Below, piece by piece: positions 13,195 to 63,025 of a DNA stretch of 64,000 nucleotides; positions within the stretch are counted from its first letter, which is position 1; every line of letters starts with the position of its first letter. A program made the position numbers and the translations under genes. Under the pieces are notes generated by a model. It saw only the letters and a list, made by a program, of their open reading frames with translations. It made no database searches and was not told the origin of the DNA. Where the stretch lies: positions 223,478-287,477 of the forward strand of contig CAZIKF010000001.1 of the NCBI GenBank assembly GCA_964539825.1, in the 5' to 3' direction. This DNA comes from an uncultured bacterium. GTDB lineage: Bacteria; Muiribacteriota; UBA6191.

Positions 13195-14556
13195 CTACCC
13201 TTCGTTCTCCAATTCCTTTGGGGCTTCTTCAGGCGAATAATGGTTAACAAGAAACTCCAAACCCTTTTCTTGAAGAATCTCAGCTCGGATTAAGGGTCTT
13301 CGGCCCAGGCTCTCCACATATTCCAGAATTTCCTGGAAGGGCTTGCGAAGATAATGGGCAGTCATGGAAACCCTGGCTGCGATCTCTCGCTCCTCCACAT
13401 CAAAACCCTCCTGCTTTGCTAAATCTGCCAAAGCAAAGCTCAATTTTAAGGCTTTGACTGAATCAATATTCATCTCTTCTTTCAGCTCGTCTTCAGATTT
13501 CCCTTCGGCCTTGAGATGATCCTCAAATGAAGTCTGCTTTTTGGATAACTCATATTTCAAGTCTTCTAATTTTGAGTCGGTAAGCTCCCGCGTTAACTCT
13601 TCAGGAACTTCACAATCGATCACTGCCTGCAATGACTCCTGGATCTTCTCTTTAATTTTTTCTTGTGCTGCCTGTTTGTTCTTACTTTCCAATTCATCGC
13701 CAATGCTCTTCTTTAATTCAACCATGGTTTTGAAGGGACCAAATTTTGACGCGAATTCATCATCAAATTTCTGCGCCTCAATCTTATGATGACCAAGAAC
13801 TTTAACTTCCAACTGGGCTGTCTTTCCAGCCACAACCTTGTTGTCAAAATCCTCCGCAAAAGAGTACTCGAGATTGACTCGATCCAGTTTTTTACTTCCA
13901 AGAATATTCTTATCAAAATCTGGATACAGCTCCTCGTTACCCATGACCAATTCGATATTGTAATGGCGCAAAAACCTACAGTCTGCCCCATCTACCTTCC
14001 CTTTAACTAAGAGATTCACGCTATCGCCCGCTGCAATGACCGCGCCCTCATCAGCTTCCTTCTTTTCACTATTCTTGGAAGCCAGCTGATTTAGAAAATC
14101 ATCAATATCATTTTCTGAAGCGGAATCGGCCATTACCTGTTCAATTTTCAGTGACTTGTAATCTCCAAGGCTAAATTCAGGGGCCACAGAAAAAAGCGCT
14201 TCGAACTCAAACTTGTCATTTCCGATTTCCACATTTTCATACTTTACTTCGGAAATAGGATCCAGGCTGACTTGCTTAAGAGCGTCATAATACGCACGCG
14301 GCAATAGCTGTGAACGGACATATTCGTGGAATTGATCCGCTCCCACCTGTCTCTTCACCAATGCCAGGGGGGTCTTATCTCGGCGAAATCCGGGAATTTT
14401 GACAAACTTTAAGACTTCTTTCTGAACCGATTTAAAGGCCCCATGAACCATAGACTTGGGAATCTTGACCTCGAGTCTTATCTTTGAGCCCGCAAGCTCA
14501 GTTTGCTCAATTTCAAAATCCCTTTCTTCTTTTACAATCTTCTTTTTCGTAGCCAT
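13195..14556 (-). CDS. tig: trigger factor
   Basis: The N-terminal ribosome-binding domain and the GFRRDKTPLALVKRQVG region are typical of Tig. The tig-clpP-clpX synteny is conserved here. Confidence 0.9.
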   Translation of the reverse strand: MATKKKIVKEERDFEIEQTELAGSKIRLEVKIPKSMVHGAFKSVQKEVLKFVKIPGFRRDKTPLALVKRQVGADQFHEYVRSQLLPRAYYDALKQVSLDPISEVKYENVEIGNDKFEFEALFSVAPEFSLGDYKSLKIEQVMADSASENDIDDFLNQLASKNSEKKEADEGAVIAAGDSVNLLVKGKVDGADCRFLRHYNIELVMGNEELYPDFDKNILGSKKLDRVNLEYSFAEDFDNKVVAGKTAQLEVKVLGHHKIEAQKFDDEFASKFGPFKTMVELKKSIGDELESKNKQAAQEKIKEKIQESLQAVIDCEVPEELTRELTDSKLEDLKYELSKKQTSFEDHLKAEGKSEDELKEEMNIDSVKALKLSFALADLAKQEGFDVEEREIAARVSMTAHYLRKPFQEILEYVESLGRRPLIRAEILQEKGLEFLVNHYSPEEAPKELENEG

Positions 14557-14600: not shown

Positions 14601-14682
14601 TGCGAAAGGAGAGACTCGAACTCTCACACCCTAAGGCACAAGATCCTAAATCTTGCGTGTCTACCAATTCCACCACTTTCGC
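14601..14682 (-). tRNA. tRNA-Leu (anticodon TAG), long variable arm, no encoded CCA
   Basis: Reverse complement is GCGAAAGTGGTGGAATTGGTAGACACGCAAGATTTAGGATCTTGTGCCTTAGGGTGTGAGAGTTCGAGTCTCTCCTTTCGCA. It has a 7-bp acceptor stem, a 3-bp D stem, a perfect CAAGA/TCTTG anticodon stem and the T-loop TTCGAGT. G37 is consistent with CUN decoding. Confidence 0.8.
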
Positions 14683-14879
14683 GAAAATAGCCCCCTAGTT
14701 TATCTAAAACTGGAAGAAAGTCAAGGTTTCAAGGGGGTTGAGGCAGGGCGATTGCATCTAAATTTATGTAATTCCAAGTACCCCGAGCCTAAAGTTTTGA
14801 CCCCATCGAGCTTTGACTCTTTTGTTCTTCGCTCCAACTTTTACGGTTTTCTCTTGCTTCAGAAGGTTTAGAGCCATTC

Positions 14880-16427
14880 TCAGCGGCGATTTTTAGTGGA
14901 ACTCTTCTGAAGAGTCTCTCGATAGTCAACTTCCGGGAAAACCCGCAAAAATCCTGGCCCGAATGCCTCATTACGAAACTTCCCATCAGTCAGGTATACC
15001 ACCGGCTGTCTCCGAACAGAATAGTGATTATTGAAGGGATTCTTTAGATACTTGTCGCCTTTGTACTTTCCTTCAAACTTCACTGTTCCCAGGTAGCTTA
15101 AACGTTGATCCTGGGGTATAGTTCCATGAACCCACAATAAGACTAGGGAATTCATTTCCAAGTCTTCTTGGAAGTCATTTTCTGAATCCATATCTACGAG
15201 AATTTCGTAGTGTGACGCTTTTTGCACAACATCGATCACAACTCCGCTCCAGGATACATAGCGACCCTCATATACACGCGGAGCATCACGTACTTCCTCA
15301 AATTCAACTCGTTGATCAAGGTCAATTTTCTGGGTATTCCTGCGCTGATTTTCCGTGATCTGCTGAACTCTCCTAGACTTGCGAACCCAGAAATCGGAGA
15401 TTCTAAAAAGAACTTTCGCCTCTTCCAGATCGTCTCCTGATAACTGACCTACTTCGATTGCCTTTTCCAGGAGTTGATGGGCTTTTTCATATTTGCGGTG
15501 CTCAAATGCCAGACGACCTTCATGGTAAGTCTTGAGAGAAAGTTCTCGAGAAAGTTTTTTCAGACGAACCTGAGTTTCCAAATTTCCAGGACTAACTCGC
15601 ACACCCTCCCTGAGTTCCTGCAGAGCAGTAGTATCTTTACCCTGTCGCTGAAGAACACGACCGAGACGTTCGTAATAAACTCCATTGGAAGGAGCCAGTT
15701 CTACCGCTTTTCGTAAATGAATCTCCGCTCGTCGATAATCACCAAGACTTTCATAATTCAGACCGATGAGATAGCGGGTTACGTCCTCTTCCCCTACACC
15801 TAGCTCCAGAGCAGTGTTCAGTTCTTGTAGAGATCGAGAATAGCGCTCTTCTATAAAGTGATATCGCGCCATGTAAAAGTGCAGATCTCCTGACTGCTGA
15901 AATACCTGCATACTATCCGCAATGAGATCTCGGACCAGGGCATACTCTCTTTTGGAAAAAAGCTCTTCGATCTGGCGTAACCTCTTTGATAAAAGCTCAT
16001 CCCGTGCGGCTTCAGCTCTAACATCATTTTTCTTTAGCTGCTCTTCAAGGATCTCTTCTCTTGACTGGACCCGCAACTCTATTTTCTCCTTAAAGCGAAT
16101 TAGCCTTTGGTACCCTCTGCGAGCCCCATCCTGCGCGGGATCCAAGGATAGAGTCCTCTGATACTGGATAAAAGCATCCTGGAGTTTTCCCTGGCGTTCA
16201 AAAACTCGACCAAGATTATAATGAGCTACCACATTATTAGGATCTCGTTTCAACGCGCTAAGAAACTCCTCAAAGGCCTGAGCGTATTTCCCCTGGTAAT
16301 AGAATGCCAGTCCCGCCGTGTTATGAATCTGCGCTGAGGAGGCCCCATTTTCACTGAGAAAAAGGAATGCCAGCAGCAGGAACTTAAAGGAAGATATAGT
16401 TCGTAAAAATGATCTATATTTGCACAT
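14880..16427 (-). CDS. TPR-repeat protein with a signal peptide
   Basis: Multiple TPR-like repeats (AxxYxxLGxxxxxxGxxxxA patterns) and an N-terminal hydrophobic signal. Confidence 0.6.
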   Translation of the reverse strand: MCKYRSFLRTISSFKFLLLAFLFLSENGASSAQIHNTAGLAFYYQGKYAQAFEEFLSALKRDPNNVVAHYNLGRVFERQGKLQDAFIQYQRTLSLDPAQDGARRGYQRLIRFKEKIELRVQSREEILEEQLKKNDVRAEAARDELLSKRLRQIEELFSKREYALVRDLIADSMQVFQQSGDLHFYMARYHFIEERYSRSLQELNTALELGVGEEDVTRYLIGLNYESLGDYRRAEIHLRKAVELAPSNGVYYERLGRVLQRQGKDTTALQELREGVRVSPGNLETQVRLKKLSRELSLKTYHEGRLAFEHRKYEKAHQLLEKAIEVGQLSGDDLEEAKVLFRISDFWVRKSRRVQQITENQRRNTQKIDLDQRVEFEEVRDAPRVYEGRYVSWSGVVIDVVQKASHYEILVDMDSENDFQEDLEMNSLVLLWVHGTIPQDQRLSYLGTVKFEGKYKGDKYLKNPFNNHYSVRRQPVVYLTDGKFRNEAFGPGFLRVFPEVDYRETLQKSSTKNRR

Positions 16428-16433
16428 AAAAAA

Positions 16434-16505
16434 TGGGCCTGAAGGGATTCGAACCCCTACAAACAGATCCGAAGTCTGGTATGCTATCCATTACACCACA
16501 GGCCC
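16434..16505 (-). tRNA. tRNA-Arg (anticodon TCG), no encoded CCA
   Basis: Reverse complement GGGCCTGTGGTGTAATGGATAGCATACCAGACTTCGGATCTGTTTGTAGGGGTTCGAATCCCTTCAGGCCCA folds as a cloverleaf. The anticodon loop is CTTCGGA (U33, anticodon UCG, G37). The 27-43 pair is a C-U mismatch. Confidence 0.7.
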
Positions 16506-16514
16506 AAAGTTCAA

Positions 16515-16589
16515 GGGCGATCAACGGGACTCGAACCCGCAACACCCAGGACCACAACCTGGTGCTCTACCGATTGAACTATGACCGCC
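16515..16589 (-). tRNA. tRNA-His (anticodon GTG) with genomically encoded G-1 pairing to C73
   Basis: Reverse complement GGCGGTCATAGTTCAATCGGTAGAGCACCAGGTTGTGGTCCTGGGTGTTGCGGGTTCGAGTCCCGTTGATCGCCC. The acceptor stem is 8 bp including G-1:C73. The anticodon stem is CCAGG/CCTGG with loop TTGTGGT. Confidence 0.8.
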
Positions 16590-19759: not shown

Positions 19760-19824
19760 TTTTGCGATCTGGATTGCCTGATTTACCTGAACTCTATCAG
19801 TCTGGTAAATTGGGCGATTTCTCT

Positions 19825-20670
19825 ATGAAAAAATTTCTTGTGCTTTTTTGGGTCGTGAGCCTTTTTGGTTTTATGACCACAGACACCCCTGGATTTGACT
19901 GGGCGTTGCCCGATCAAGATAAAACCAGGGTAGGTAGACGGGGTTTTTTGGAAATAGTCCGCCTACAAAATGAACTTAATAAACACCCTACCCACTCCCA
20001 TCTGCTTGTAGAACTAGGGGCATTGTATTTCCGTAGAGGACACTTGAGCCGCGCTCGGTCTTACTTTAACAGCGCGTTGAATAGAAAGTACTATACCGCA
20101 ACCCTCTACTATTACCTTGGCCTACTGGCCATGAAAGACAATTCGCCTGTCGCTGCCGAAAAGAACTTCTTGCGTGCCTTATCCATGGGAAAGCAGCAGA
20201 ATCCGGAGCACTTTGTTTCCCTGAGTCTGTTTTATTTGAAAGAGAAAAGGTTTGACGCTGGTCTTCGCTGGGCCGCATTAGGTCTAAAGCTGCACCCACA
20301 CTCCCTGAGGCTAAGGGTTCTTTCTTCCTTTCAACTCATCAAGCTCAAGAGATTTAAAGAAGCAGAACTCACCTTGATCGCCTCCCGGAGGCTAGATCCA
20401 GGTAACTCAGCCATACCTTACAATCTTGCCTGCCTTTACGCTCAACTGGGCGATCAAGACGCATCGATTTATCATCTACGTAAAGCCGCCAGAAACGGCT
20501 ATTTAAAACCCCACTTCCCCATGCTTGATGAGAGTTTCGATTCCTTTCGAACCCATCCTCAGTTTCAACTAGCCCTGCAAGATATAGGATTAAATGAGAA
20601 AAAGTTCTATAGGCTCAAGAAACTAAAGTACAGGGTGCGCGAAAAAAGACCCCAGAAATCTACCCAGTAA
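19825..20670 (+). CDS. TPR-repeat protein with a signal peptide
   Basis: The signal peptide MKKFLVLFWVVSLFGF is followed by TPR-like repeats. The ORF runs from 19762, but I prefer the internal Met as the start. Confidence 0.55.
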   Translation: MKKFLVLFWVVSLFGFMTTDTPGFDWALPDQDKTRVGRRGFLEIVRLQNELNKHPTHSHLLVELGALYFRRGHLSRARSYFNSALNRKYYTATLYYYLGLLAMKDNSPVAAEKNFLRALSMGKQQNPEHFVSLSLFYLKEKRFDAGLRWAALGLKLHPHSLRLRVLSSFQLIKLKRFKEAELTLIASRRLDPGNSAIPYNLACLYAQLGDQDASIYHLRKAARNGYLKPHFPMLDESFDSFRTHPQFQLALQDIGLNEKKFYRLKKLKYRVREKRPQKSTQ

Positions 20671-20671
20671 G

Positions 20672-21100
20672 GCGTAGCGTCGCTACGGACGACAAGGGAA
20701 ACGCTAGACCATGCACCGTTTGGAAGAAAAGTGAGACAAGAGTTGCGATACCCGGTGGGTGAGGAGTCGAATTCGGGAGGTTTGACGTCAGCCTGGGGTT
20801 TCGAGAAGTAGTATGGGGTAGTGATTCGTGAGGAGTGCGTAGCGTCGCTACGGACGACAAGGGAAACGCTAGACCATGCACCGTTTGGAAGAAAAGTGAG
20901 ACAAGAGTTGCGATACCCGGTGGGTGAGGAGTCGAATTCGGGAGGTTTGACGTCAGCCTGGGGTTTCGAGAAGTAGTATGGGGTAGTGATTCGTGAGGAG
21001 TGCGTAGCGTCGCTACGGACGACAAGGGAAACGCTAGACCATGCCGCTTCTCGGAAGAACAGGGTAGTCAACCCTCCCGAATTCGACTCCTCGCCCACCA
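20672..21100. repeat. 165-bp tandem direct repeat, 2 full copies plus a 43-bp partial third copy whose tail is a diverged inverted copy of the repeat core
   Basis: The unit start GCGTAGCGTCGCTACGG recurs at 20672, 20837 and 21002, so the period is exactly 165 bp. Each unit carries the palindrome CGTAGCGTCGCTACG and the core GGTGGGTGAGGAGTCGAATTCGGGAGG. The third copy diverges after 21044 and ends with CCTCCCGAATTCGACTCCTCGCCCACC, the reverse complement of that core. Confidence 0.9.
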
Positions 21101-22405
21101 CTAATTATGTAGGCGAAATTCCAATCCTCTGCTGAGTTTGGGGTCTTTCCAGGGCACCAGGCTTATCTGCTTAGCCCTGCGATTGAAGAGCACCATAACC
21201 ATTCCTGCCGCAAAGAGAAGAAAACCGACATCCATCCAGTGAAAATACCCGCCATCACGATGAGCCGGCATCACTATGAAATAAAGGTCGAAAATATGGG
21301 CAAGAATCAGCCATTTCGCCATAAATAACAATCTTCCAGGATTGGTTTTTTGATTCCTGGATAAAAGAGCGAAAAAAGGTATCACAAAATGAAAAATGAT
21401 CAAAAACCAAGCGATAACGGTCCAGCCCTCTCCATAACGATGAGCAAACCAAATGGTTTCTTCAGGCAGGTTCCCGTACCAGATGAGCATAAATTGTGAG
21501 AATGCGATATATGCCCAAAAGGTGTTGAAGGCGAACATCAACAAACCAAGGCTATAGTAGGAGTCGCGGTGAATGTCGGGATGCAGATAGCCAGCTTCCT
21601 TTAGCTTAACGGTAATAATTGTAATCAAAGAAATGGCGGCTACGAGGGTACCCGCAAAGTAATAAACTCCAAACATGGTTGAAAACCAGTGGGGTTCCAG
21701 GCTCATCATGAAATCAACCGCTGACATGGTTAAAGTGACCGGAAAAACGAGCATGAAAATAGCCGCTATTCTTATGTTGATCCCTGTTAATTTCTGATCA
21801 CCCGTCTCATCCTGTTTCAGGGAATTACGAGTAAACCAATAATAGAAGAGGTACCAGAGACCAAAACACAAAATGACCCGGACCAGGAAGAATCCTTCAT
21901 TCAGATAGCCTCTTTTTCCCTCAATTATTGGATCTTTTTCGTGAGAAGAAGCTGCCCCCTGTTTGGCATCATGAGACTCTTGCTTCGATTGATCTGCTGC
22001 GTCTGATCCATGAGAACTGCCATGTTGAGCAGAAGCCTCGGCATGATGAGTTGGGAGCCAGTGGTGATAAAGCTTGGGCATCCCGCCAAAGAAGAGGATA
22101 GGAATAGCCAGGAGACCGACCCATGGAATCATCGATGCCAGGCATTCAAAAACCCTTCTAAACGGCGTACTCCAAATCGCGCCGGTAATGTACTCCAAGG
22201 CAACATAGAACAGCGAGCCTACGGCAATACTAACCATAAGCATATACATAATCAGGTAGTTATGCCAAAAACGCGTGGCATCACTCCACAGGGTCAGAAT
22301 AGCGCAGGCAGCGCCAAGCACTATCAGGGCCAGCCCAAGGGTGCCAACTGAACTTGCTACGGGACTATGTTTGTACTCGTGAAAAGGAATCTGCTCGTTA
22401 CTCAT
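21101..22405 (-). CDS. actF: Alternative Complex III subunit ActF (NrfD-like polytopic membrane subunit)
   Basis: 434-aa, about 10-TM NrfD/PsrC-like protein, last in the actABCDEF order. It contains a His/Ser/Gln-rich low-complexity loop. Confidence 0.75.
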   Translation of the reverse strand: MSNEQIPFHEYKHSPVASSVGTLGLALIVLGAACAILTLWSDATRFWHNYLIMYMLMVSIAVGSLFYVALEYITGAIWSTPFRRVFECLASMIPWVGLLAIPILFFGGMPKLYHHWLPTHHAEASAQHGSSHGSDAADQSKQESHDAKQGAASSHEKDPIIEGKRGYLNEGFFLVRVILCFGLWYLFYYWFTRNSLKQDETGDQKLTGINIRIAAIFMLVFPVTLTMSAVDFMMSLEPHWFSTMFGVYYFAGTLVAAISLITIITVKLKEAGYLHPDIHRDSYYSLGLLMFAFNTFWAYIAFSQFMLIWYGNLPEETIWFAHRYGEGWTVIAWFLIIFHFVIPFFALLSRNQKTNPGRLLFMAKWLILAHIFDLYFIVMPAHRDGGYFHWMDVGFLLFAAGMVMVLFNRRAKQISLVPWKDPKLSRGLEFRLHN

Positions 22406-23628
22406 TTTAGATCTGACTCCTTAGCATCCACGGCCCGTTGAAGGGCCCTGAGATATAGAATGATGGACCAGCGATCTTGTTCTTTGATTTGCTTCGCGTA
22501 AGAAGGCATAGCATTCTGCCCCTCTACAATCACATGGTAAATCCTTCCGTCACTAAAACCTTTCATCTTCTTGGAATGTAAACTAGGCGGACGTAGACCC
22601 TTTGCTGCTTCTCGGTTTGAAACCTTCCCATCTCCCTTTCCAAAGTCTCCATGACATAGGGCGCAGTAGATCTGGTACATTTCCTTCCCGCGGGTCAGAT
22701 TGGCTTCATTCACGACGAGGGGATTGGTCAATAAGCGGCCTGCCTGATCAGGAGTCTTGGAGAACTGATAAGGCATAAATCCTCTGGCAACAGTACCCTC
22801 AACGGGCCTTTGCATTCCTCGGCCATCCTTAAAAATAGGCTTCTTATTTTCGTCCAGCAAAGAGGCCTCTTGAGGCATCAATTTTTTCTGGGTTTCCATC
22901 CAGGTCCATGGGGCCATATACAGCACTTTATTAAAAATCAAATAGAACTTGGTTGAAACTCCACCGATCACGGCAAGTAGTATTCCAAAGAAAACAATGG
23001 AGGAAAGAAAAGAAGGGGGTCTCTTGTAAGGCTGCCTGACAGATTGAATAGCCGCCCCCCCCACATCTTCCAGAAATGTTTTAACCGAAGCTTCATCGAA
23101 AGAAGGATCACTGGCCTCGATACAGAGTCCAAAGTGGTCTGAAGAAACTGACCGCATATATTCTGTATCATGGAGAGGGTGTGAGTTGCCCGGCAGGTTA
23201 CAGAAGAACATAATCATGGATGCCGCTGTAGCAAGGGCGCAGAATAGTACCGTTAACTCGAACATAACGGGCACAAATGCCGGTAGTGAAAAGAGCGGCT
23301 TTCCACCGATTACAAATGGGTATCGCTCCAGCCAACTGGGCAGCATGAGAAGATCGGAGCCGATTCCACCCAGGGGATTACCAAGCGTGTACCACTGAAA
23401 AAGTACCGCGACGATAAAACCAATCAGGGCAAATACCAGGGAAACATAAGGGAGCTTGGTCCCTTTGAGTTTCATAGCATGGTCCATACCATGGACCGGA
23501 TAGGGAGTGTGTACATCAAAGTCCTGATATCCCGCCTCTACGGTTTTCTCCGCAGCGTTAATAATTGCGTCAGGAGACTTGAATAGAGCTACTACTGAGT
23601 GAAGTCTTCTACTCATGATCACCTCCAT
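22402..23628 (-). CDS. actDE: fused ACIII subunits ActD (membrane domain) and ActE (mono-haem cytochrome c)
   Basis: The N-terminal ActD-like region ([39 protein letters not shown]) is followed by TM segments. The C-terminus has the single haem site [13 protein letters not shown]. It overlaps actC and actF by 4 nt each. Confidence 0.7.
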
Positions 23629-29065: not shown

Positions 29066-30838
29066 TCACCATCCGATTAACCAACAAAGCACAAACAAAG
29101 CAGCGATCGCTGAGAACCCAATGCTCACGGTTCCATTTTCAAAACGTGCCATCATCGCTGCTTTTTTACTCTGCATCTCAATAGAAGACACCCCGGAAAT
29201 CAGCCACCCCACTGAAAGTATCTTGGTGGAGACTAAGCCTGGAAAATTTTTAAAAAGAGCGGAAATCCATGAAGTAAATTCCCTGGCCAAAATCCTGTCT
29301 GTCACTGAATTTATCCCATTCAACAGCAAATCCATCAGTCGGTAGAAACCTCTGGCGCTCTTCCTATACACCCATTCAAAATCAAGATTCACTGAGCGAA
29401 TCTCCGCAGGGTAAAGACCTGCAAGCATGAGTAATGAAAAAGCCAGAGCCGAGAAAAACAACAACTGAGCTTGAGAGATGAAATGATCGTAGGTGTATGG
29501 CTGATACTCCACCGCATTAGGGAGTAGTGCATACAATGGATCCGGGTAGCAACCCAGAAAAATACATAGAAATCCCGCAATCCCCATAGCCGCCAGCATA
29601 TTACCCGGAGCTTCTCTGGTTCTCAAACCTCGGTCATGGGAGAAAAATGCGAAAAACGGGATCTTGATACCAGCGTGATGAAAAACACCTGCTGCGGCAA
29701 AGAGCAACACAAACCATACCAAATACAGATGTTCTTCAAGAGATGCGGACATAATCAAAGACTTGCTTACAAATCCATTAGTCAGGGGAAATGCGGAAAT
29801 GGACATCGCACCAATTACACAGAAGAGGCATGTCCAGGGCATGGACTTGTAAAGCCCACCCAGCTCAGTACATTTTGTTCTCCCCGTGCGATACAGCACT
29901 GCCCCCATAGACATCCAGAGCAACCCCTTATAGAGTATGTGGCAAAATGCATGAGCTACAGCACCATTAAGGGCTAGAGGCGTCCCTATTCCAATTCCAG
30001 TGACCATAAAACCGAGCTGGTTCAATAAACTATATGCCAGTACTTTACGTAGGTTATTCTCGATAACGGCATAAAAGATCGGAAAGGCAGCCATCCCAAC
30101 CCCTATCCAGATCAGCAAGTGTTCGCCAGGAAATGCTCTTGCAAGTGCATAAACCGCTGTCTTAGTGGTAAAGGAGCTCAAAAACACAGCCCCCCCCAGA
30201 CTAGAAGAGGGGTAGGAATCCACAAGCCAGGTATGCAGAAAGGGCCAGGCACAATTGACTCCCATACCAAAAAATATTAGGTAGGTGCTCAGGGAAGAGA
30301 GACCAATTTGTCCAAACTCAAAAGAACCCGTTTCATGGATTCTTAAAATGATTCCGCTGATCAACAATAATCCTCCAAAAACATGCATAAGTACGTAACG
30401 AAAAGCCGCTTTTGTGGACTCCGGTGTTTTTCGAGCCAAGATTAGGAACATAGAGCCGAGCGTGAGCATTTCCCAAAAAACGAGAAAGGAAAACAGATCT
30501 CCCGCCAGAATTGCGCCTACAGCCGAACCAGCATAAAAAAGCCCGGCAACAAACTCCAAATTGTCCTTCTGGTGCAGAATATAAAGTACACCTATGAACG
30601 AAATGAGCAGGAAGATGATGCCAAAAGCTGTACTAAGCTTATCCACATGGCCCAACACAATTGGGATCTGAAGAAAGGTAAATTCCCAATAATTTCCTGG
30701 CTCAAGCTGCAAAAACCCCCACAGAGCAATTACTGGGAGGGCCAGGAGGTAAAACTTTTTCCACCACCCCCTGAAGAGAGGCACCAGCAAGCTCCCTCCC
30801 ATCAGGAGTAGGGAAGGGGGAATCTCGCTAGCGATCAT
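29066..30838 (-). CDS. NuoL/MrpA-like proton-pumping antiporter subunit (Mrp module, A-like, without the MrpB domain)
   Basis: 590 aa, polytopic. The FLVFWEMLTLGSMFLI region is typical of the complex-I antiporter-like family (NuoL/M/N, MrpA/D). Confidence 0.7.
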   Translation of the reverse strand: MIASEIPPSLLLMGGSLLVPLFRGWWKKFYLLALPVIALWGFLQLEPGNYWEFTFLQIPIVLGHVDKLSTAFGIIFLLISFIGVLYILHQKDNLEFVAGLFYAGSAVGAILAGDLFSFLVFWEMLTLGSMFLILARKTPESTKAAFRYVLMHVFGGLLLISGIILRIHETGSFEFGQIGLSSLSTYLIFFGMGVNCAWPFLHTWLVDSYPSSSLGGAVFLSSFTTKTAVYALARAFPGEHLLIWIGVGMAAFPIFYAVIENNLRKVLAYSLLNQLGFMVTGIGIGTPLALNGAVAHAFCHILYKGLLWMSMGAVLYRTGRTKCTELGGLYKSMPWTCLFCVIGAMSISAFPLTNGFVSKSLIMSASLEEHLYLVWFVLLFAAAGVFHHAGIKIPFFAFFSHDRGLRTREAPGNMLAAMGIAGFLCIFLGCYPDPLYALLPNAVEYQPYTYDHFISQAQLLFFSALAFSLLMLAGLYPAEIRSVNLDFEWVYRKSARGFYRLMDLLLNGINSVTDRILAREFTSWISALFKNFPGLVSTKILSVGWLISGVSSIEMQSKKAAMMARFENGTVSIGFSAIAALFVLCWLIGW

Positions 30839-31073
30839 AATAGTCTTCCTTTCTCATCACAAGCGGGCGCAATATATACTTGGCAATAAAAACCAACAGA
30901 ATACATGCAATAAATCCAAAAACAGCATAAAACCCCGGCCATTCTTCCACCGGGATGTGCCCATGCCTGTGAATCAGAAAATCCAAACAGAAGAGAATTC
31001 CACAGCAAATGAAAAAGCAGTTCAGAGCTTTTTTAACATTCCTTAAATCATCCCAGATGTGTTTATCCCCCAT
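30828..31073 (-). CDS. small two-TM membrane protein with an HRHGH motif, embedded in the Mrp cluster
   Basis: 81 aa with two hydrophobic helices. It overlaps the following antiporter gene by 11 nt. I recognise no family. Confidence 0.35.
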   Translation of the reverse strand: MGDKHIWDDLRNVKKALNCFFICCGILFCLDFLIHRHGHIPVEEWPGFYAVFGFIACILLVFIAKYILRPLVMRKEDYYDR

Positions 31074-31216
31074 TACTTACCCCTTCCAACTCAAAAAAAT
31101 GATGCCCAGATACAAGAGACCCGAAACAAATGCCAGGCTAAACACCAGCGGATAACCAGGCCACGCCTCATGGGAAAGTACTTGAAGATCTTCCGGTTCC
31201 TGAGAATGAGTCACGC

Positions 31217-32719
31217 TCAACCTCCTACGGCAAGGGTTGCAAGGGAAAAGAACGGTTCGGGGAAAAAGAACAGCACAATTGAAGCTAGAGCAGTGAAACA
31301 CAGGGGTAGTGTGCAGGCTAATGGAGCCTCCTGAATCGCCACCGCATCCTCTTCTTTCGCTGTTCCGAAAAAAGCCTGGTAAATAATGGGGAAAAAATAG
31401 GCGGCGTTTAGAAGAGAACTTCCTAAAAGCACCAGCATCATATACCAGTGTCCTGATTCGATGGTTCCCGTGAGAAGGAGCCACTTACTGATAAACCCAC
31501 CCGCTGGTGGTAGACCAATTACGCTTAGGGAGCCGATTAAAAACGCACCGAAAGTAAACGGCATGCGCCTCCCCAGGCCAACCATTTGCGAAATATACTT
31601 CTTCCCGGTAGCGACAAAAATGGCACCAGCACACATAAACAATGTGATCTTGCCAAAGGCATGCATACATATATGCAGCATTGCACCCTTGACTCCGTAA
31701 CTCTCTGCTAACCCCGCTCCCAGGATAATGTAAGAAAGCTGACCCACTGTTGAAAACGCCAATCTTCGTTTTAAATTATCCTGGGTCAATGCGATCAGGG
31801 ATGAAAGAATGACCGTAATGCCGGCAATCACACAAATGACGTTATCTAAAGACGTATCACTCAGGAGCTCAATTCCAAAGACCCCTGTAATGACCCGGAG
31901 ATTACAAAAAACACCTACCTTTACGACAGCCACGGCATGGAGAAGAGCGCTAACGGGAGTGGGCGCCACCATTGCCCCTGGAAGCCAGGAATGGAACGGC
32001 ATCAATCCTGATTTTGCAAACCCAAAAAGAAAGAGCAGCAGCAATACCAGAAGCGAACCCGGCTTAGTTACGTCGCTAAAGATCCCTAAACTGGAAAACT
32101 CAAGAGTTCCCGTCATTTGATAGGTGATGATCATTGCTGGCAATACGAAGCCAATGGAAGTGCCTAAAAGATACGTAAGATACTTTCTCCCCCCGGTCCG
32201 GGCTTCTGAATCTTGATGATGGGCTACCAGGGGAAAGGTGGAGAGAGACAAGATTTCGTAAAAAACATACAATGTTAGTAAATTACCCGCGAAAGCCACA
32301 CCTGCCGTCGCGGACAGGGCTAGAGCAAAACAGGCGAAAAAACGAGTCTGAGCGTGCTCATTTAAGCCCCTCATATAGCCTATGCAGTAGAGGGATGTGG
32401 GAATCCACAAGGTACAGGCAACAAAAGCGAAAAGAAGACCGAAAGAATCTACTCGAAACTGAAGAGATAATCCCGGTAGAACCTGGCACAATTCCCATTC
32501 CACTCTTATTCCATGCATCACCGGATCCAGCAGTGTATACAGTAGGGCTAGCTTCATAAACCCAGCCAGGAAAGTCCAAAACTCCCTCAGGTTGGGCTTA
32601 CGTCCGCTCAAAGAAATTGGAATCACTGCTAATGCAGAAATTAGGACAATTGCTACGGGGGTAAATGAGGTCACGGCCTGAGTCACAGTAATCCACCTGG
32701 AATCACAGGCTGTATCCAC
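31217..32719 (-). CDS. MrpD/NuoM/NuoN-like antiporter subunit
   Basis: 500-aa polytopic protein of the antiporter-like family. It overlaps the upstream paralog by 37 nt. Confidence 0.7.
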   Translation of the reverse strand: MDTACDSRWITVTQAVTSFTPVAIVLISALAVIPISLSGRKPNLREFWTFLAGFMKLALLYTLLDPVMHGIRVEWELCQVLPGLSLQFRVDSFGLLFAFVACTLWIPTSLYCIGYMRGLNEHAQTRFFACFALALSATAGVAFAGNLLTLYVFYEILSLSTFPLVAHHQDSEARTGGRKYLTYLLGTSIGFVLPAMIITYQMTGTLEFSSLGIFSDVTKPGSLLVLLLLFLFGFAKSGLMPFHSWLPGAMVAPTPVSALLHAVAVVKVGVFCNLRVITGVFGIELLSDTSLDNVICVIAGITVILSSLIALTQDNLKRRLAFSTVGQLSYIILGAGLAESYGVKGAMLHICMHAFGKITLFMCAGAIFVATGKKYISQMVGLGRRMPFTFGAFLIGSLSVIGLPPAGGFISKWLLLTGTIESGHWYMMLVLLGSSLLNAAYFFPIIYQAFFGTAKEEDAVAIQEAPLACTLPLCFTALASIVLFFFPEPFFSLATLAVGG

Positions 32720-34176
32720 CTGGTAACAATCTCACTCGAATATAGTCCCATTGCTAAAAGGGCCAACGCCGAAGCCCAGAGAGGGAGCAGCATCGAGGGA
32801 GGGCTATCTGCATAACAAGTCTCCTGATGAGAATGCGGGTCCGGCTCTTCATCTGACGTTGCTGAGAAAAATGCGGTTTCTACAATTCGTATAAAAAGGA
32901 CTGCATTGATAAGACTACTCAAAAGTAAGGCCACCCCAAAGGCATAATCTCCGGACTGGTAGGCTCCACTGAGTAAATACCACTTACTAAAAAAACCACA
33001 GGTCGGCGGTACCCCTATCATGGAAAGAGCCCCGAGTATAAAGGCACCCATGGTCCACGGCATTGTCGAAAAAGCCCCTTTAAAGTCCTCAATGTGCGCT
33101 CTGCCTCGCTTGTACACAATGGAGCCCACGACCATGAATAAACAGACTGTCATCAGCCCATCCGCCAGAATATGGTAAGAGGCACCGATATATCCTGAGG
33201 CGTTTCCAAGCCATGCCCCGCCCACCATATAGCCAATTTCAGCCACGATGAGATAAGTCAGCATGCGCTTGATATTTCTCTGGGCAAGCGCGAAGCAGGA
33301 GCCCATCAAAATGGCAATTACGGCCAATGCCATCACCAGGGGTTTCCATGTAATCACTGAGAAAACCCAATCAACGGAATACATGGTGAACATGATGCGC
33401 AGCATCACATATACCGAAACCTTTGTCATTAAAGGGGCCACGAGACAGCTAACGGCGGTGGGAGCATTGGTATAAGCATTGGGTAACCAGCCGTGAAATG
33501 GAAATAGAGCCATTTTCAACCAACAGCCCATCATCAGGAACGCAAACGCAACCAGGATCGCTCTGGACCCCGACAGGCTGGGAACAATACTACCGATATC
33601 CACCATGTTCAAAGTACCTGTTTTGATCAGTAGAAACCCAACTCCAAGAAGGTAAAAGCAGGCTCCAACGGTCCCCAGAATCACGTAATTAAAGGTAGCC
33701 ATGTAGGCACGCCCACGGCCCAAAGCTATTAACGCGTAGCTGGTTAGCGCGGCAATTTCAAGCAGAACATACAAATTGAAAGCATCTCCTGTAATCGTGA
33801 TTCCAAGAAGTCCTGTCACTAATAAAATAAAGAGAGTATAAAAATTGGAGATTTTACCCCCTAATTCCTTCTGAACAGGTTTCCTGGCATAGACCGCAAC
33901 CAAAAGAGCCACGGAAGAAACCATCATCAGAACCATGGCATTCAATGCATCTACCCGGTATTCAATACCGAAGGGCGGAGCCCACCCTCCAAGGTGGTAG
34001 CTGATTGGCCCTGAATTTACGACCTGGGCCAGGGTTGCAATAGCACTCAAGGAGCTACCCAGCAGCCCCACAACCGTGAGAGGTTGACACACGGCCGGGC
34101 GAAACCACCCTAGAAGAGTTAAGGCGAATGCCGTAAACAGGGGGAAAACGATAATGAGAATCGGTAATTGGTCCAT
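32683..34176 (-). CDS. MrpD/NuoM/NuoN-like antiporter subunit (second copy)
   Basis: 497-aa polytopic protein, a paralog of the previous gene. Its start abuts the mrpC stop. Confidence 0.7.
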   Translation of the reverse strand: MDQLPILIIVFPLFTAFALTLLGWFRPAVCQPLTVVGLLGSSLSAIATLAQVVNSGPISYHLGGWAPPFGIEYRVDALNAMVLMMVSSVALLVAVYARKPVQKELGGKISNFYTLFILLVTGLLGITITGDAFNLYVLLEIAALTSYALIALGRGRAYMATFNYVILGTVGACFYLLGVGFLLIKTGTLNMVDIGSIVPSLSGSRAILVAFAFLMMGCWLKMALFPFHGWLPNAYTNAPTAVSCLVAPLMTKVSVYVMLRIMFTMYSVDWVFSVITWKPLVMALAVIAILMGSCFALAQRNIKRMLTYLIVAEIGYMVGGAWLGNASGYIGASYHILADGLMTVCLFMVVGSIVYKRGRAHIEDFKGAFSTMPWTMGAFILGALSMIGVPPTCGFFSKWYLLSGAYQSGDYAFGVALLLSSLINAVLFIRIVETAFFSATSDEEPDPHSHQETCYADSPPSMLLPLWASALALLAMGLYSSEIVTRWIQPVIPGGLL

Positions 34177-34613
34177 TATGCTTTTAATTCATCCTGGAGA
34201 GGAAGCTCATGATCTTGTTCTTCGCTCATACAATTAAGGATCTCGTCTTCCTCGCAAGTACCATATTCCCTATAGATTTTCTGCACCAGGGTTAAAGCCA
34301 TTCCCAATGTTGCCACGCCGACTACAATGGCCGTAAGCATAAGAATTTGGGTGAGGGGGTTGGCATAAATAGTAGGATCCGAAATGTAGGATTCCGGCCC
34401 ATGGCCATGGGCTCCGGGAACGTGTTTTAAGATTGGGATTGTGGCACCCTTCTTAGCTCCCATCGAAATGTAGAACATAATAATCGCGTTCTGGAAAATA
34501 CACATTCCGATACATTTCTTAATGAGATTATTTTTTCCGATCATGGCCCATAGCCCCGTCATCAACAAAATGATCACAAGCAGATAGTTATAATGTACTT
34601 CTACCCAGGCCAT
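34176..34613 (-). CDS. mrpC: MrpC/NuoK-like subunit
   Basis: NLIKKCIGMCIFQNAIIMFYI matches the MnhC/NuoK core. I placed the start at the internal Met (MAWVEVHY); the ORF runs up to 34673. Confidence 0.7.
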   Translation of the reverse strand: MAWVEVHYNYLLVIILLMTGLWAMIGKNNLIKKCIGMCIFQNAIIMFYISMGAKKGATIPILKHVPGAHGHGPESYISDPTIYANPLTQILMLTAIVVGVATLGMALTLVQKIYREYGTCEEDEILNCMSEEQDHELPLQDELKA

Positions 34614-34620
34614 GAATCTC

Positions 34621-35508
34621 CTATAACCCTCTGTCCATCCGCCCGTCAGAGGACAGATAAGCGAATATTGCAAACATCGAGCTCATTACCGTGAAAGCTA
34701 CACCGATTTCCACCCAAAGCATCCCGTGATAACGGGCCATAATTGCAGCTGCTTTAGGATCCCCTCCAAGAAGCGGAGCCAGGGCGCTATAATCCAGAAA
34801 ATTACCCCCGAAAAACATACAGCCAAGGCCGACCCCGGCATAAAGCAGAAAACCGCCCGCTACCAGGACAATGAACCACTTCTCCCGCATGCGATCCAGG
34901 GCGGATTCAAGCTCACCTGTCATTGCCATAAGAATCAAACTTGCCCCCAGTATCACCCCGCCCTGAAATCCGCCACCGGGACTGTGATGCCCGTGCGCAA
35001 TTACATAGAGGGCAAACATCTGCATAAACGGCACAATGAACCGGGTGGCGACACCGAGAATAAATCCCTCCGGAGGGGCATGAGGCGGTCTATCGCCAGT
35101 TTCGGAATCCTCTTCCTTTGGATCTCTGCGCAAAATCGCCATGATTCCAATCACGGCCACAAATACCACCCCGGTTTCAAACATGGTATCAAAACCTCGG
35201 TAATCCGCTAACACTGCAGTCACCACGTTAGGTACATGGGTCTGCTCCATCGAATTTTTCAGGTAATAAGCAGATACGTATGAATTAGCAGGAGACTTCG
35301 CGTCTCCCCAGGCCGGAAGGTCATCAAGGACCCCGATCAACAGAAATCCAACAAAGAGTGCTAGCAATAGCGATAGAGCCTTCAATCCTTTGCCTCTTTC
35401 TTGATGTTGTATGCGGTGGCAATGAAGAAAACTGTACTGACTCCAGCGCCCACAGCCGCCTCGGTAAAGGCGACATCCACTGCTCCCATCACAGTCCACA
35501 AAAGGCAC
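34621..35508 (-). CDS. mrpB: MrpB/MbhE-like subunit
   Basis: VTAVLADYRGFDTMFETGVVFVAVIG matches the MnhB core. The true start is probably downstream of 35382, since the ORF overlaps the preceding gene by 127 nt. Confidence 0.6.
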   Translation of the reverse strand: MPFVDCDGSSGCRLYRGGCGRWSQYSFLHCHRIQHQERGKGLKALSLLLALFVGFLLIGVLDDLPAWGDAKSPANSYVSAYYLKNSMEQTHVPNVVTAVLADYRGFDTMFETGVVFVAVIGIMAILRRDPKEEDSETGDRPPHAPPEGFILGVATRFIVPFMQMFALYVIAHGHHSPGGGFQGGVILGASLILMAMTGELESALDRMREKWFIVLVAGGFLLYAGVGLGCMFFGGNFLDYSALAPLLGGDPKAAAIMARYHGMLWVEIGVAFTVMSSMFAIFAYLSSDGRMDRGL

Positions 35509-35645
35509 ATGAAAAAGCTATAGGTACCGAATACAATAGCAGCCCCCATCAGATCCTTTAGAGCTAAGGAAAGTGCGGCGGTAGCAACTACCAGGACCAG
35601 CAGAGTAAAATCATAAGTCCAAATCAAATCTTGAGGCCAAATCAC
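35382..35645 (-). CDS. MbhD/DUF4040-like small subunit (N-terminal MrpB-type domain)
   Basis: 87-aa, three-TM protein that precedes mrpB as in Mbh/Mrp-like clusters. Confidence 0.55.
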   Translation of the reverse strand: MIWPQDLIWTYDFTLLVLVVATAALSLALKDLMGAAIVFGTYSFFMCLLWTVMGAVDVAFTEAAVGAGVSTVFFIATAYNIKKEAKD

Positions 35646-35974
35646 TACCGGCTTCCCTTCTTCCAGTGATCAATCTCTGTTTCATATCCTGCATCCATGA
35701 TGGCGTGTGTCGCTGTGGGGCTTCCCATGAAAATGAATCCCACAACCAGCAGGACTTTTGAGGCAACCAGGAGAGTATGGAAATCAACACCGTATTTGGA
35801 AAGGATGAATATTGCGCAACCCAAGTGCAGAAGAACCGAAGACAGGGTGTCGCCCTTTCCGGCAGCATGCATCCTCGTGTAAAAACCGGGAAACCGCAAA
35901 AGACCTACACTCGTTCCGAAGAAAAAGAACAGTCCGGATAAGACGCAAAAAATGACTATTCCATCAAGAATCAT
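35645..35974 (-). CDS. mrpG: MrpG-like subunit
   Basis: GLLRFPGFYTRMHAAGKGDTLSSVL matches the MnhG signature. I placed the start at the internal Met (MILDGIVIF); the ORF runs up to 36109. Confidence 0.6.
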   Translation of the reverse strand: MILDGIVIFCVLSGLFFFFGTSVGLLRFPGFYTRMHAAGKGDTLSSVLLHLGCAIFILSKYGVDFHTLLVASKVLLVVGFIFMGSPTATHAIMDAGYETEIDHWKKGSR

Positions 35975-36287
35975 CGGCTCTCTCCAAATGCCTGGTTTCT
36001 CCCTCCCATTGAAGCTCGGGATGCAGAGTTTTATGATGGTGGTAATACTTGGCGGCCGCGATGGATGTAATGAAGTTAAGCAGACCATAACCAAGGGAAA
36101 TATCCACAAACATATCAGCCCTCTCGAATATGACCCCGATTACAACCAGGAGCACTGTTGCCTTGGTTCCAATTACATTAACAGCTACTAGCCGGTCGAT
36201 CACTGTAGGGCCCTTGAACATACGAATCAGCACGAGGATCATCATGATGATCAAAGCCATGCCGGCACCGATGAAGAATTTATCCAT
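35964..36287 (-). CDS. mrpF: MrpF-like subunit
   Basis: MDKFFIGAGMALIIMMILVLIRMFKGPTVIDRLVAVNVIGTK matches the MnhF pattern. I used the internal Met; the ORF runs up to 36464. Confidence 0.6.
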   Translation of the reverse strand: MDKFFIGAGMALIIMMILVLIRMFKGPTVIDRLVAVNVIGTKATVLLVVIGVIFERADMFVDISLGYGLLNFITSIAAAKYYHHHKTLHPELQWEGETRHLERADDS

Positions 36288-36774
36288 TCGCCACGCCCTC
36301 AAAGACCCACTTAATACGCTTCTCCATATCTCCAGGCACACCTTCTGCGGATTGGCGGGTAAGCGCATGAACCAGGTACACGCCATTTCTAATGCGAACC
36401 GTGATAGTACCTGGTGTAAGGGTGATAGAGTTAGCCAGAAGAAAGCGCGGGATTTCCCCCTCAAGACTGGTCGTGAAGTCCATCATTTGCGGCTCTAGCA
36501 ATTCCTCCATTTTGGGATGCAGAGCGACATAAACCACATGAAGATTGGCAACCACAATTTGATAGAGAAGCCAGAAGAAGTAGCCCGTAAAGCGCCAGAG
36601 GACTCGCAGGCGTGCCCCCAATCCAATGTTGGTCTCCTTTACCAGCAAATCACCGGTCCAGAGAGTAACGATGAGGGTACAAATCACTCCCATTGATAGA
36701 TGGAATCCATCTAGATTCCCAGAGAGTAGAATCCAAAATCCGAATAGTATGACGAATGAAACCGCGAATCGCAT
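36280..36774 (-). CDS. mrpE: MrpE-like subunit
   Basis: MRFAVSFVILFGFWILLSGNLDGFHLSMGVI is the MnhE-like N-terminus. The internal Met gives about 165 aa; the ORF runs up to 36825. Confidence 0.6.
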   Translation of the reverse strand: MRFAVSFVILFGFWILLSGNLDGFHLSMGVICTLIVTLWTGDLLVKETNIGLGARLRVLWRFTGYFFWLLYQIVVANLHVVYVALHPKMEELLEPQMMDFTTSLEGEIPRFLLANSITLTPGTITVRIRNGVYLVHALTRQSAEGVPGDMEKRIKWVFEGVANG

Positions 36775-36987
36775 TCTTGTCCTGTTCTTCAGTTGGGGCC
36801 GGGTGACCCCGAGCGACGGCCTCATACTAAAGGGGTGGGTTCATCGTGTCAAGAAGAAGTAAGCAGCCCCACAAGACCAGCAGTAATCTCCTATAAGGAA
36901 AGTAAACCGGTTGTAGTTCATGGACAAAATAAGCTCATCGCAGATGGACAAAGGAATCGGACAATCTAATTGCGCTTGGGCACAAGA

Positions 36988-38047: not shown

Positions 38048-38785
38048 TCAGGCTTCCATGCCCTGAAGCATCCCGCTCGATTCGCGAGATTCGTCCACCG
38101 GTAATTCCACGACAAATTCACAGCCTGGCGCCCAGTTTTCATTGAGCAGAATCCGGCCTCCATGGGCAAGGGCAATGCGAGAACAAATGGAGAGCCCCAG
38201 CCCTATACCTTCAGTCTTCCCGGTAACAAAAGCATCAAAAATTCGGGCTCTTAAATCTGCGGGAACTCCAGGGCCGTTATCCCGAATTCGAACCACATGA
38301 CTCCCATGGTTCTCCGCTGAATTCAAGACTATTTCCACCTTCCCACTCTCGTCAATCGCCTGGGCGGCATTGATCACCAGGTTTTCAATCATCCGCTCCA
38401 GCTGCAGACTATTCCCCACCACCATCGCGGCCCCATTCATGGTCAGGCCGATCTGCAAACCCTGTAGGTCCGGCTTGGCACGCAAGGCTCGGACTACTGA
38501 GGAAAGAACCCGATTTAATGAAATCTGGGTAGGCTCTACGGAGCAATCTCTAGAACAAAATAGAATGTCATGAATGACAGTCTCCAGCCGGTCTGTTTCA
38601 GTCTTAATGAATGAAAGCGCTCTGAGGTCTGAATCTTCAAAGACATCCCCAGAACTCTTGTCGAGCATTTCAAGACAGGTGCGGATCGTGGTTAACGGAT
38701 TTCTGAGTTCATGTGCCAGACAAGAAGCCATTTCAGCCTCTCTTGACCGTGGAACGTAAAAGATCGGATCATCCTTCGATTTCAT
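38048..38785 (-). CDS. histidine kinase core (DHp plus HATPase_c) with no sensor or TM domain
   Basis: H-box LAHELRNPLTTIRTCLEML, then N, G1 (IRDNGPGVP) and G2 (GIGLGLSI) boxes. It is only 245 aa and cytoplasmic. Confidence 0.75.
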   Translation of the reverse strand: MKSKDDPIFYVPRSREAEMASCLAHELRNPLTTIRTCLEMLDKSSGDVFEDSDLRALSFIKTETDRLETVIHDILFCSRDCSVEPTQISLNRVLSSVVRALRAKPDLQGLQIGLTMNGAAMVVGNSLQLERMIENLVINAAQAIDESGKVEIVLNSAENHGSHVVRIRDNGPGVPADLRARIFDAFVTGKTEGIGLGLSICSRIALAHGGRILLNENWAPGCEFVVELPVDESRESSGMLQGMEA

Positions 38786-40103: not shown

Positions 40104-40264
40104 GACCCTGATCCCTGTTCCACAAGGGGACTCCGCGTCCCTTTTTGATGTAAATTCCATTATAGAACATTTGCCCAATGATGTCACCTGCACCGGAGTC
40201 AGGATTCAACACTGCTCTTTTACAGAAAACCGTTCCACCTCGAGGACCGTGGTATCCTAAGGCC

Positions 40265-46569: not shown

Positions 46570-46633
46570 GAAGGCTGTGTCGTTCAGGAAGCAAGGGAAG
46601 CACAGGAATCAGAGGAAAAAAAGGAATGAAGTA

Positions 46634-46667
46634 TGCACCCGCCATTTAGGCGTGGGTGCATATTTTA
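46634..46667 (+). terminator. putative Rho-independent terminator of the upstream TPR gene
   Basis: The stem TGCACCCGCC/GCGTGGGTGCA has the loop ATTTAG and is followed by TATTTTA. It lies 65 nt after the stop codon. Confidence 0.5.
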
Positions 46668-63007: not shown

Positions 63008-63025
63008 TTCTTGAAAAGATGTGGA

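Follow-up and report, generated by a model that had tools for sequence, protein, structure and literature searches.

A 165-bp tandem array between convergent genes next to actF as a probable resident copy of a dispersed intergenic hairpin-repeat family

The 165-bp tandem array located between the actF gene and a convergent TPR-repeat protein gene was found to be more than a local duplication, since it belongs to an uncatalogued family of hairpins that is selected for its structure. The family comprises at least five members, which lie at no fewer than four loci with unrelated neighbouring genes. The array in the window, as the whole analysed stretch of 64,000 nucleotides is called here, is probably, if by no means certainly, the resident copy of a dispersed non-coding hairpin repeat whose layout and genomic position recall those of REPIN and ERIC elements but whose sequence is unrelated to theirs. 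The original prediction proved right in part, several of its details needing correction. Among the candidate roles listed in it, a miniature mobile or REP-like element was the one best supported, by the presence of paralogues elsewhere, by the presence or absence of the element at syntenic positions and by its placement from stop codon to stop codon. The family itself has not been catalogued before, although dispersed intergenic palindromic repeats as such are a known kind of element.

The array was delimited by TRF at positions 20672-21044 of the window, with a period of 165, 2.3 copies and 100% matches (score 746), and it is the strongest tandem repeat of the window by a wide margin. TRF and a repeat search agreed with the originally proposed period, number of copies and unit starts at 20672, 20837 and 21002. 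The first unit (20672-20836, + strand) is made up of a 43-nt block A, a segment R' (20715-20753), which is a degenerate remnant of a right arm inside the 165-bp unit, and a left arm (20754-20836). Block A corresponds to the apex palindrome plus the start of the right arm. The second unit (20837-21001, + strand) is 100% identical to the first one, and a third copy of block A (21002-21044, + strand) is likewise 100% identical over its 43 nt. This third copy had been described as truncated, yet its homology to units 1 and 2 runs on at 87% identity until approximately position 21071, for a total of about 70 nt. The 15-bp palindrome CGTAGCGTCGCTACG was located in every copy, as predicted (20673-20687, 20838-20852 and 21003-21017). 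No other site was found in the window even when two mismatches were allowed, 0.01 being expected by chance. A second palindrome had been proposed within each unit; the sequence given for it, TCGAATTCGG, is not palindromic, but its part CGAATTCG is. The 27-nt core was present at 20754 and 20919 on the + strand, and its reverse complement at the array end, with 0 occurrences expected by chance. The inverted core is therefore real, but it was found at 21073-21099 instead of 21069-21096 and with one mismatch. The inverted repeat around the core spans 33 nt with 94% identity. The 165-bp unit is not a self-contained element.

Folding, a check that had been suggested together with the original prediction, revealed that the array is built around one near-perfect hairpin of 181 nt, HP1 (20919-21099, + strand), which scored 167 bits with the covariance model R1 described below. 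HP1 consists of a left arm, the apex CGUAGC-GUC-GCUACG (the palindrome at 21003-21017) and a right arm, and its basal stem comprises 27 + 5 bp. The predicted structure contains 71 base pairs, nearly uninterrupted, and has a folding energy of -122.7 kcal/mol, compared with -61 kcal/mol for shuffled sequences (z -15). The antisense strand folds at -93.6 kcal/mol, 29 kcal/mol worse than the + strand, because six of the pairs are G.U on the + strand; only two are G.U on the - strand. The cores, for which long-range stems of roughly 27 bp had been anticipated, are only the foot of this whole-length hairpin. The left-arm cores at 20754-20786 and 20919-20951 have just one full counterpart, the basal right arm (21067-21099, + strand), which ends 1 nt short of the actF stop codon TAG (21103-21101). 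Of the left arms, only the last one is matched over its whole length, by the unique 55 nt at 21045-21099; in the fold of the full array, either left arm is able to pair with this right arm. A weaker interior hairpin (20754-20917, + strand), formed by the left arm of unit 1, the apex and the R' of unit 2, was recognised by R1 with 81 bits (E 5e-16) and by nhmmer (E 8e-24). The 181-nt hairpin had escaped the original prediction, as had two more family members in the window and a difference in copy number among assemblies.

The assembly from which the window was taken is a short-read SPAdes contig, and the 2.3-copy form was seen in this one SPAdes assembly only, apart from the NCBI copy of the same contig. 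In at least four further assemblies of this strain, which match the window at 100% identity over 5-7 kb, the locus has 1.26 copies in the arrangement A-B-A-C, and several other contigs stop within the repeat. In this minimal form, which is the robust feature of the locus, the full hairpin HP1 is preceded by a half copy that is degenerate and truncated at its 5' end. Since at least four otherwise identical assemblies have 1.26 copies, the extra 165 bp either vary within the population or were produced by the assembler. It is quite possible, if not the likelier case, that the 2.3-copy array is an assembly artefact and that the true locus is the 1.26-copy form. The perfect identity between the two units, the restriction of the extra unit to one short-read contig and its NCBI copy, the agreement among the independent 1.26-copy assemblies and the contigs ending inside the repeat would all fit such an artefact. 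However, an assembler can write the B-A-B junction only if this junction is among the k-mers, and the contig breaks in other samples fit a graph loop, that is, more than one state in the population. A polymorphism is also plausible, as unequal recombination is favoured by two perfect 43-bp direct repeats. An artefact would in any case touch only the copy number; the hairpin family is present in every assembly.

The element takes up the entire interval between the stop codons of its two neighbours, which confirmed the predicted placement between convergent genes beside actF. On one side, the gene for the TPR-repeat protein (19762-20670, + strand) ends with a TAA stop codon 1 nt ahead of the array. 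On the other side, actF (21101-22405, - strand), encoding a membrane subunit of alternative complex III, ends with a TAG stop codon 1 nt away from the hairpin. An operon for alternative complex III ends with actF, and ActD/cytochrome c, the NrfD-type ActC and ActB are encoded upstream of it. The closest named homologues of ActF belong to Cloacimonetes and Ignavibacteria, with approximately 50% identity. Compared with their orthologues, both the TPR protein and ActF have intact C-termini.

Synteny was found to be kept in relatives with ActF identities of 76%, 74% and 69%, in which the space between the TPR gene and actF is a gap of 88 bp or 32 bp, or a 35-bp gene overlap. No hairpin was detected near actF in these relatives with the R1 covariance model. 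In a relative with 94% ActF identity, the actF stop codon is immediately followed by a homologous arm. This arm is 69% identical without indels, a value equal to the identity at third codon positions of actF (69.7%), and the contig ends 65 nt into the hairpin. Since the element is absent from the 69-76% relatives and present in the 94% relative, it was gained at this position after the split from the lineage with 76% ActF identity, and it has been retained since then.

The reading frames within the repeat had been judged not to be genuine coding sequence, and the absence of domains, homologues and a conserved frame supports this view. The first of them, a spurious ORF of 164 aa (20607-21101, - strand), has a GTG start that overlaps the actF stop codon and runs along the C-rich antisense strand. 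It is annotated in the source assembly only, the 1.26-copy assemblies having no gene call at this place. No Pfam match was obtained for it, and among 5.8 billion proteins no homologue was found but the ORF itself. The second ORF, of 121 aa, gave weak, multi-stretch database matches that are probably compositional. The original argument against coding, that the period is not a multiple of 3, fails because 165 = 3 x 55. A real repetitive protein with a 55-codon period would in fact agree with this divisibility, with the two minus-strand frames that stay open across the array and with the gene call in the source annotation. Its probability is nevertheless practically negligible: besides the lack of domains and homologues and the missing calls in the 1.26-copy assemblies, open frames are expected on the minus strand since it is C-rich, and the paralogues keep their base pairing and not their reading frame, which indels shift between members.

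Known classes of RNA and of repeats were also considered. ARAGORN was negative for tRNA and tmRNA at the locus, and Rfam 15 returned no family at gathering score and nothing meaningful up to E = 10 at three loci. Several Rfam RNAs (6S RNA, SRP RNA, Y RNA, OLE and HEARO) are similar to the element in size range and in having a long hairpin with conserved internal loops. Retrons, DGRs, type III toxin-antitoxin systems and CRISPR were rejected on the basis that there is no nearby reverse transcriptase or toxin, that the copies are 100% identical and that the 165-nt period contains no spacers.

Copies elsewhere, whose search had been proposed with the original prediction, were found both in the window and in metagenome contigs. 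A weak self-BLAST match pointed to the other large intergenic gap of the window (46570-46980), which is also convergent and lies 26 kb away. In a 180-nt sliding scan of the window, this gap and the one between the TPR gene and actF were the only extreme folding outliers. The paralogous hairpin HP2 (46822-46985, + strand, 164 nt; 150 bits with R1) folds at -105.6 to -105.8 kcal/mol on the + strand versus -69.7 to -70.4 kcal/mol on the - strand, and its terminal bases provide the TGA stop codon of a 277-aa gene (46981-47814, - strand). A short paralogue of about 100 nt, HP3 (46686-46784, - strand; 94 bits with R1), folds at -57.5 to -59.5 kcal/mol on the - strand versus -33.2 kcal/mol on the + strand and is homologous to the inner part of HP1. 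The central parts of the three hairpins could be aligned (GGTAGTGnnTCGTGA ... CGTAGCnnnGCTACG ... GGGAnnCGCTAG; alignment A1). HP3 and one of the metagenome hairpins, L025, have GGTGGC...GTCACC in place of the HP1 apex. The R1 covariance model, built from HP1, HP2 and HP3, gave matches in the window at the HP1 and HP2/HP3 loci only, and a further 7.7 kb of sequence beyond the left end of the window contained no additional copy. Since two loci were found in the approximately 72 kb of genome covered, a high copy number, such as the tens to hundreds of copies per genome of REP/REPIN elements, is not established.

When a gapped pattern allowing for the variation among paralogues was used, three metagenome matches (L025, L026 and L027) were obtained, as compared with about 0.001 expected by chance in a rough estimate. 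The hairpin region of L027 duplicates that of L026, so the matches add two to three members to the family. These hairpins are HP2-like and lie between unrelated genes, in one case an unknown ORF and a pseudouridine-glycosidase-like gene, and in the other a CHASE2 cyclase and an MqnC-like radical-SAM gene. A shared family of neighbouring genes was discarded, as the 277-aa protein next to HP2 and a 405-aa protein of L025 are unrelated. The L025 hairpin is located 5 nt from a stop codon. Both the L025 and the L026 hairpins are placed between ORFs of the same direction, the 5' end of the latter being separated by 22 nt from the earliest start codon that the adjacent ORF could use. The three contigs have a window-like G+C content and tetranucleotide correlations of 0.89-0.95, which are within the range of the window itself and would also fit a close relative. 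This organism also occurs in the oxygen-minimum-zone sample series from which the contigs were obtained. Based on these three observations, the contigs probably derive from the same organism or a very close one. Overall, the paralogues share about 60-85% identity and the members range from 99 to 181 nt in length. An exact 20-mer of the HP1 core gave a single chance match in the genome collection, in an Acidobacteria MAG, and no match in metagenome or viral contigs. The miss in the metagenomes is probably explained by the fact that the contig of this organism there ends inside the core. No blastn match to HP1 was found in phages, plasmids and E. coli (5,426 genomes, 11-base words).

The folding of the family was found to be strongly strand-dependent. 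In each of the five members, one strand folds better than the other by 24-39 kcal/mol, the sense and antisense values for the remaining two members being -122.7/-91.6 and -107.9/-68.5 kcal/mol. The direction of the preference was unchanged when DNA energy parameters were used. Over the five members, 35 G.U pairs were counted on the sense strand versus 3 on the other one. In a five-sequence alignment, 90.2% of the cells were paired versus 34-45% with the partner slid, both sides had changed in 30 of 52 pairs, and none of 500 shuffles reached the observed values; these covariation figures are to be read with the caveat that the alignment was fitted to the covariance model. When the three HP2-type members were analysed independently with MAFFT and RNAalifold, the 66 pairs comprised 170 Watson-Crick cells, 21 G.U cells and 1 A.C cell. 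This analysis also revealed 6-11 double compensatory changes per pairwise comparison, with differences in 3-4 of 31 unpaired columns. Strain-level microvariation was discarded as a source of the covariation, all contigs of this strain being 100% identical. The internal loops are better conserved than the stems, and an invariant U.G pair is present in the helix GGUAGUGG/CCGCUAG. The GC skew of the + strand is -0.06 outside the hairpins versus +0.2 to +0.45 in them. The one-sided wobble bias does not come from the background composition, because the skew outside the hairpins is only -0.06.

From these comparisons, the pairing of the hairpins is maintained on one particular strand, on which G.U (or G.T) is tolerated and A.C almost never. 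The combination of covarying stems, conserved loops and one-sided wobble indicates that the element is read as a single strand, either RNA or DNA. By the same reasoning, whatever reads it is specific for its sequence as well as its structure. In HP1, HP2 and L025, the strand that folds well is the one opposite to the adjacent mRNA.

This orientation bears on the local role that had been among the original candidates, a bidirectional terminator or RNA-stability element. It could be argued that the array acts in cis at this locus only, as a bidirectional terminator or 3' stabiliser for the TPR gene and actF that became oversized through a chance duplication. Its position between convergent genes, touching both stop codons, and the high stability of the hairpin on both strands would be in line with such a role, and in relatives any termination signal must fit in a gap of 0-88 bp. 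However, homologous hairpins are found at unrelated loci, some of them between same-direction genes, and the pairing is optimised antisense to actF and not on the actF mRNA. Furthermore, HP1 is not followed by a U-tract on either strand (its 3' flanks are ACUAAUUAUG on the + strand and GGGUAUCGCA on the - strand), and a terminator scan of both window loci was negative. Because the good-folding strand is antisense to the gene it touches and the U-tract is missing, termination or stabilisation is poorly supported as the selected function, and a purely local element seems very unlikely.

A structured-RNA role, also proposed originally, may likewise apply in view of the strand-specific folding, the covarying stems and the conserved loops. 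The members could be paralogous small-RNA genes, with the G-rich strand as the sense strand, antisense to the 3' ends of the neighbouring genes. Such RNAs would act through their conserved loops by binding a protein, or as cis-antisense RNAs, and the tandem units would be duplicated genes. The one-sided wobble (21 G.U against 1 A.C, and 35 against 3), the conservation of the loops above that of the stems and the invariant U.G pair fit this possibility. Since the sense strand opposes the adjacent mRNA in HP1, HP2 and L025, a read-through mRNA cannot be the selected form. In addition, HP2 and HP3 diverge from a 37-nt AT-rich spacer with -10-like hexamers. On the other hand, neither sigma-70-type promoters nor U-tract terminators were found at either window locus in scans that may not suit this phylum, and the 22 nt between the L026 hairpin and the nearest start codon leave no obvious room for a promoter. 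Truncated and degenerate copies, together with presence or absence at syntenic positions, are more typical of selfish repeats. Small-RNA genes, the main alternative to the preferred reading, are for these reasons considered somewhat unlikely. It is rather unlikely that the hairpins form a novel structured-RNA class, about 160-180 nt long, with three covarying helices, purine-rich conserved loops and the invariant U.G pair. Such RNAs would be transcribed from the strand antisense to gene ends and would partner a protein, for instance by serving a mobile element as guide or recognition RNA or by sequestering the protein.

The preferred reading, a dispersed hairpin repeat, calls for a comparison with the named repeat systems. 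REPs located between convergent ORFs lie less than 20 bp from both ORF ends, and their termini supply stop codons (PMC3733652). Tandem clusters of REPINs include flanking sequence, and REPINs insert beside existing REPINs (PMC3116915). The present family shares with REPs and REPINs its extragenic and dispersed occurrence and the ability to form hairpins in ssDNA or mRNA. It also shares the location between convergent or same-direction ORFs, at less than 20 bp from stop codons and sometimes providing the stop, and the tandem clusters of near-identical units that include flanking sequence, with new copies beside old ones. In contrast, its members are single hairpins of 99-181 nt and not doublets of 20-40-bp REPs, a conserved unpaired GTAG/CGTC tag is missing (in the HP1 apex both motifs are base-paired), its paralogues are far more diverged, and no gene for RAYT, the transposase that mobilises REPs and is flanked by them, was seen in the ORFs covered. 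The whole element folds as a hairpin, and its arms are not recognisable as self-palindromic REP units. The family thus fails the REP definition.

ERIC/IRU sequences of enterobacteria are imperfect palindromes of about 127 bp or more, found in transcribed intergenic regions, which form RNA hairpins, occur as size variants and have no known transposase. The imperfect palindrome in an intergenic position, the fold as an RNA hairpin, the lack of a known transposase and the size variants are common to the present family, but there is no sequence similarity (the E. coli genomes carrying ERIC and REP were negative), the host belongs to another phylum and the hairpins are longer. Correia MITEs of Neisseria are transcribed together with adjacent genes, and the long RNA hairpins that they form are substrates of RNase III. 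Like these and other MITEs, the present elements are short and non-coding, have inverted ends and show presence or absence between relatives. They differ in that there is no target-site duplication, the centre is conserved while the termini vary, the copies are not near-identical and no parent insertion sequence was seen. The attC sites of integrons are imperfect palindromes in which structure rather than sequence is conserved. The placement directly after a stop codon and the folded strand antisense to the adjacent gene are similar here. However, the RYYYAAC/GTTRRRY end boxes are absent, the termini being RGTGAKTCGAGG...CCTCGGMTCAC or GGTGGG...CCCACC, the neighbours are syntenic core genes and not cassettes, and no integrase was found in the ORFs covered.

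Within the reading as a dispersed hairpin repeat, we infer that the family is or once was mobile, and that it spreads or spread as a strand-specific single-stranded intermediate. The conserved loops and the invariant U.G pair would be the features by which a protein recognises this intermediate. Single-stranded DNA is the favoured form, by comparison with REP/RAYT and IS200/IS605-type elements, and an RNA route would also be possible. Copies would survive where their insertion is harmless, right behind stop codons. Unequal recombination or replication slippage between the perfect 43-bp A blocks could then add or remove whole 165-bp A+B units, resulting in 1.26 or 2.26 copies. As a side effect, a read-through transcript would carry a very stable hairpin 1 nt past the actF stop codon, which could stop 3' exonucleases, recruit RNase III or impede the ribosome at termination, and the expression of actF and of the TPR gene may be affected in this way.

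No transposase, RAYT, integrase or reverse transcriptase was detected in the 32 scanned ORFs of the window or in the precomputed Pfam calls, the ORFs at 13195-14556, 14880-16427 and 50900-63949 lying outside both sets. Neither a target-site duplication nor a shared target motif was present at the four full-length copies (ACCC/ACTA, TATT/GCTT, GGAA/TAAA and AGAT/AAAA). The identity of only 60-85% among the paralogues argues against a mobile element, as it is unlike that of recently transposed MITEs or REPINs. The conserved centre and variable termini make the family more similar to a functional RNA than to a classic MITE.

Most work on dispersed palindromic repeats concerns proteobacteria and cyanobacteria, whereas this family comes from an uncultured marine lineage and does not fit the REP definition. 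The element has consequences for the genome data of this organism: it has created a spurious annotated gene, it breaks short-read contigs and it makes the tandem copy number dependent on the assembler. Should the members indeed represent structured RNAs of a new class, their tandem array would amount to a small-RNA locus of variable dosage. With its unusually clean signature of selection on one strand, the family offers a good case for asking whether such repeats persist through mobility as single-stranded DNA or through a function as RNA.

Short-read contigs from many samples (L005-L007, L023, L024, L029 and L030) were found to end either within HP1, the 181-nt hairpin at 20919-21099 (+), or its 165-bp tandem array, or within HP2, its paralogue at 46822-46985 (+). 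The contigs ending in HP2 break 27-30 nt into the hairpin. HP1 with its array and HP2 are systematic assembly breakpoints for the source organism. A 164-aa ORF at 20607-21101 (-) has been deposited publicly as a predicted protein (P0121; NCBI and ENA), which is an artefact of the tandem repeat.

The convergent gap that holds HP2 and HP3, the paralogue at 46686-46784 (-), contains two further repeats. Between HP3 and the gene for a 701-aa TPR protein, a 12-bp inverted repeat (AAGTATGCACCC / GGGTGCATATTT) was observed at 46629-46665; on the + strand ATATTTT comes after it, and on the - strand a T7 run comes after it at a distance of a few bases. The inverted repeat is a candidate for the gap's actual bidirectional terminator; no call was obtained at this repeat in a terminator consensus scan. 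Directly past the stop codon of the same TPR gene lies a tandem repeat of CAGGAAGCA with a period of 9 nt (46585-46617, 3.7 copies, 75% matches).

At both hairpin loci of the window, the + strand neighbour encodes a TPR-repeat protein (19762-20670 and 44464-46569). This neighbourhood is probably a coincidence, since the loci of the HP2-like hairpins in the metagenome contigs L025 and L026 have no TPR gene beside them. Directly upstream of the sense strand of each of these metagenome hairpins, long purine-only, GA-rich tracts were observed (L025 3070-3160 and L026 3089-3190, - strand). The L026 tract, in which GGAATCAAAGG is present repeatedly, overlaps the first start codon listed for the ORF of the MqnC-like gene, and that codon is probably not the real start. 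Immediately downstream of the L026 main hairpin and on the same strand, a second, weaker structured region was detected (2765-2925, - strand; -59.3 kcal/mol, z -3.5). Its closing stem, GGTTCGAGA / TCTCGAACC, resembles the HP1/HP3 motif TTTCGAGAAG / CTTCTCGGAA; the region was not recognized by R1, the covariance model built from the three window hairpins.

As for the wider gene content, a single ORF of 2929 aa occupies 52530-61319 (-). ActD (22402-23628, -), a subunit of alternative complex III (ACIII), carries a cbb3-type cytochrome c domain fused at its C-terminal end and is therefore an ActD-ActE fusion; its start codon is called differently among assemblies (404 or 408 aa). At 14601-16588 (-), a tRNA cluster (Leu-TAG, Arg-TCG and His-GTG) adjoins the flagellar genes flgH and flgI. 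Beyond it come the ACIII operon, an operon for an Mrp-type antiporter (29066-36825) and, at 38048-40193, a sigma-54 two-component pair. The region comprising the tRNA cluster and the flagellar, ACIII, Mrp and sigma-54 genes is core housekeeping and not a genomic island.
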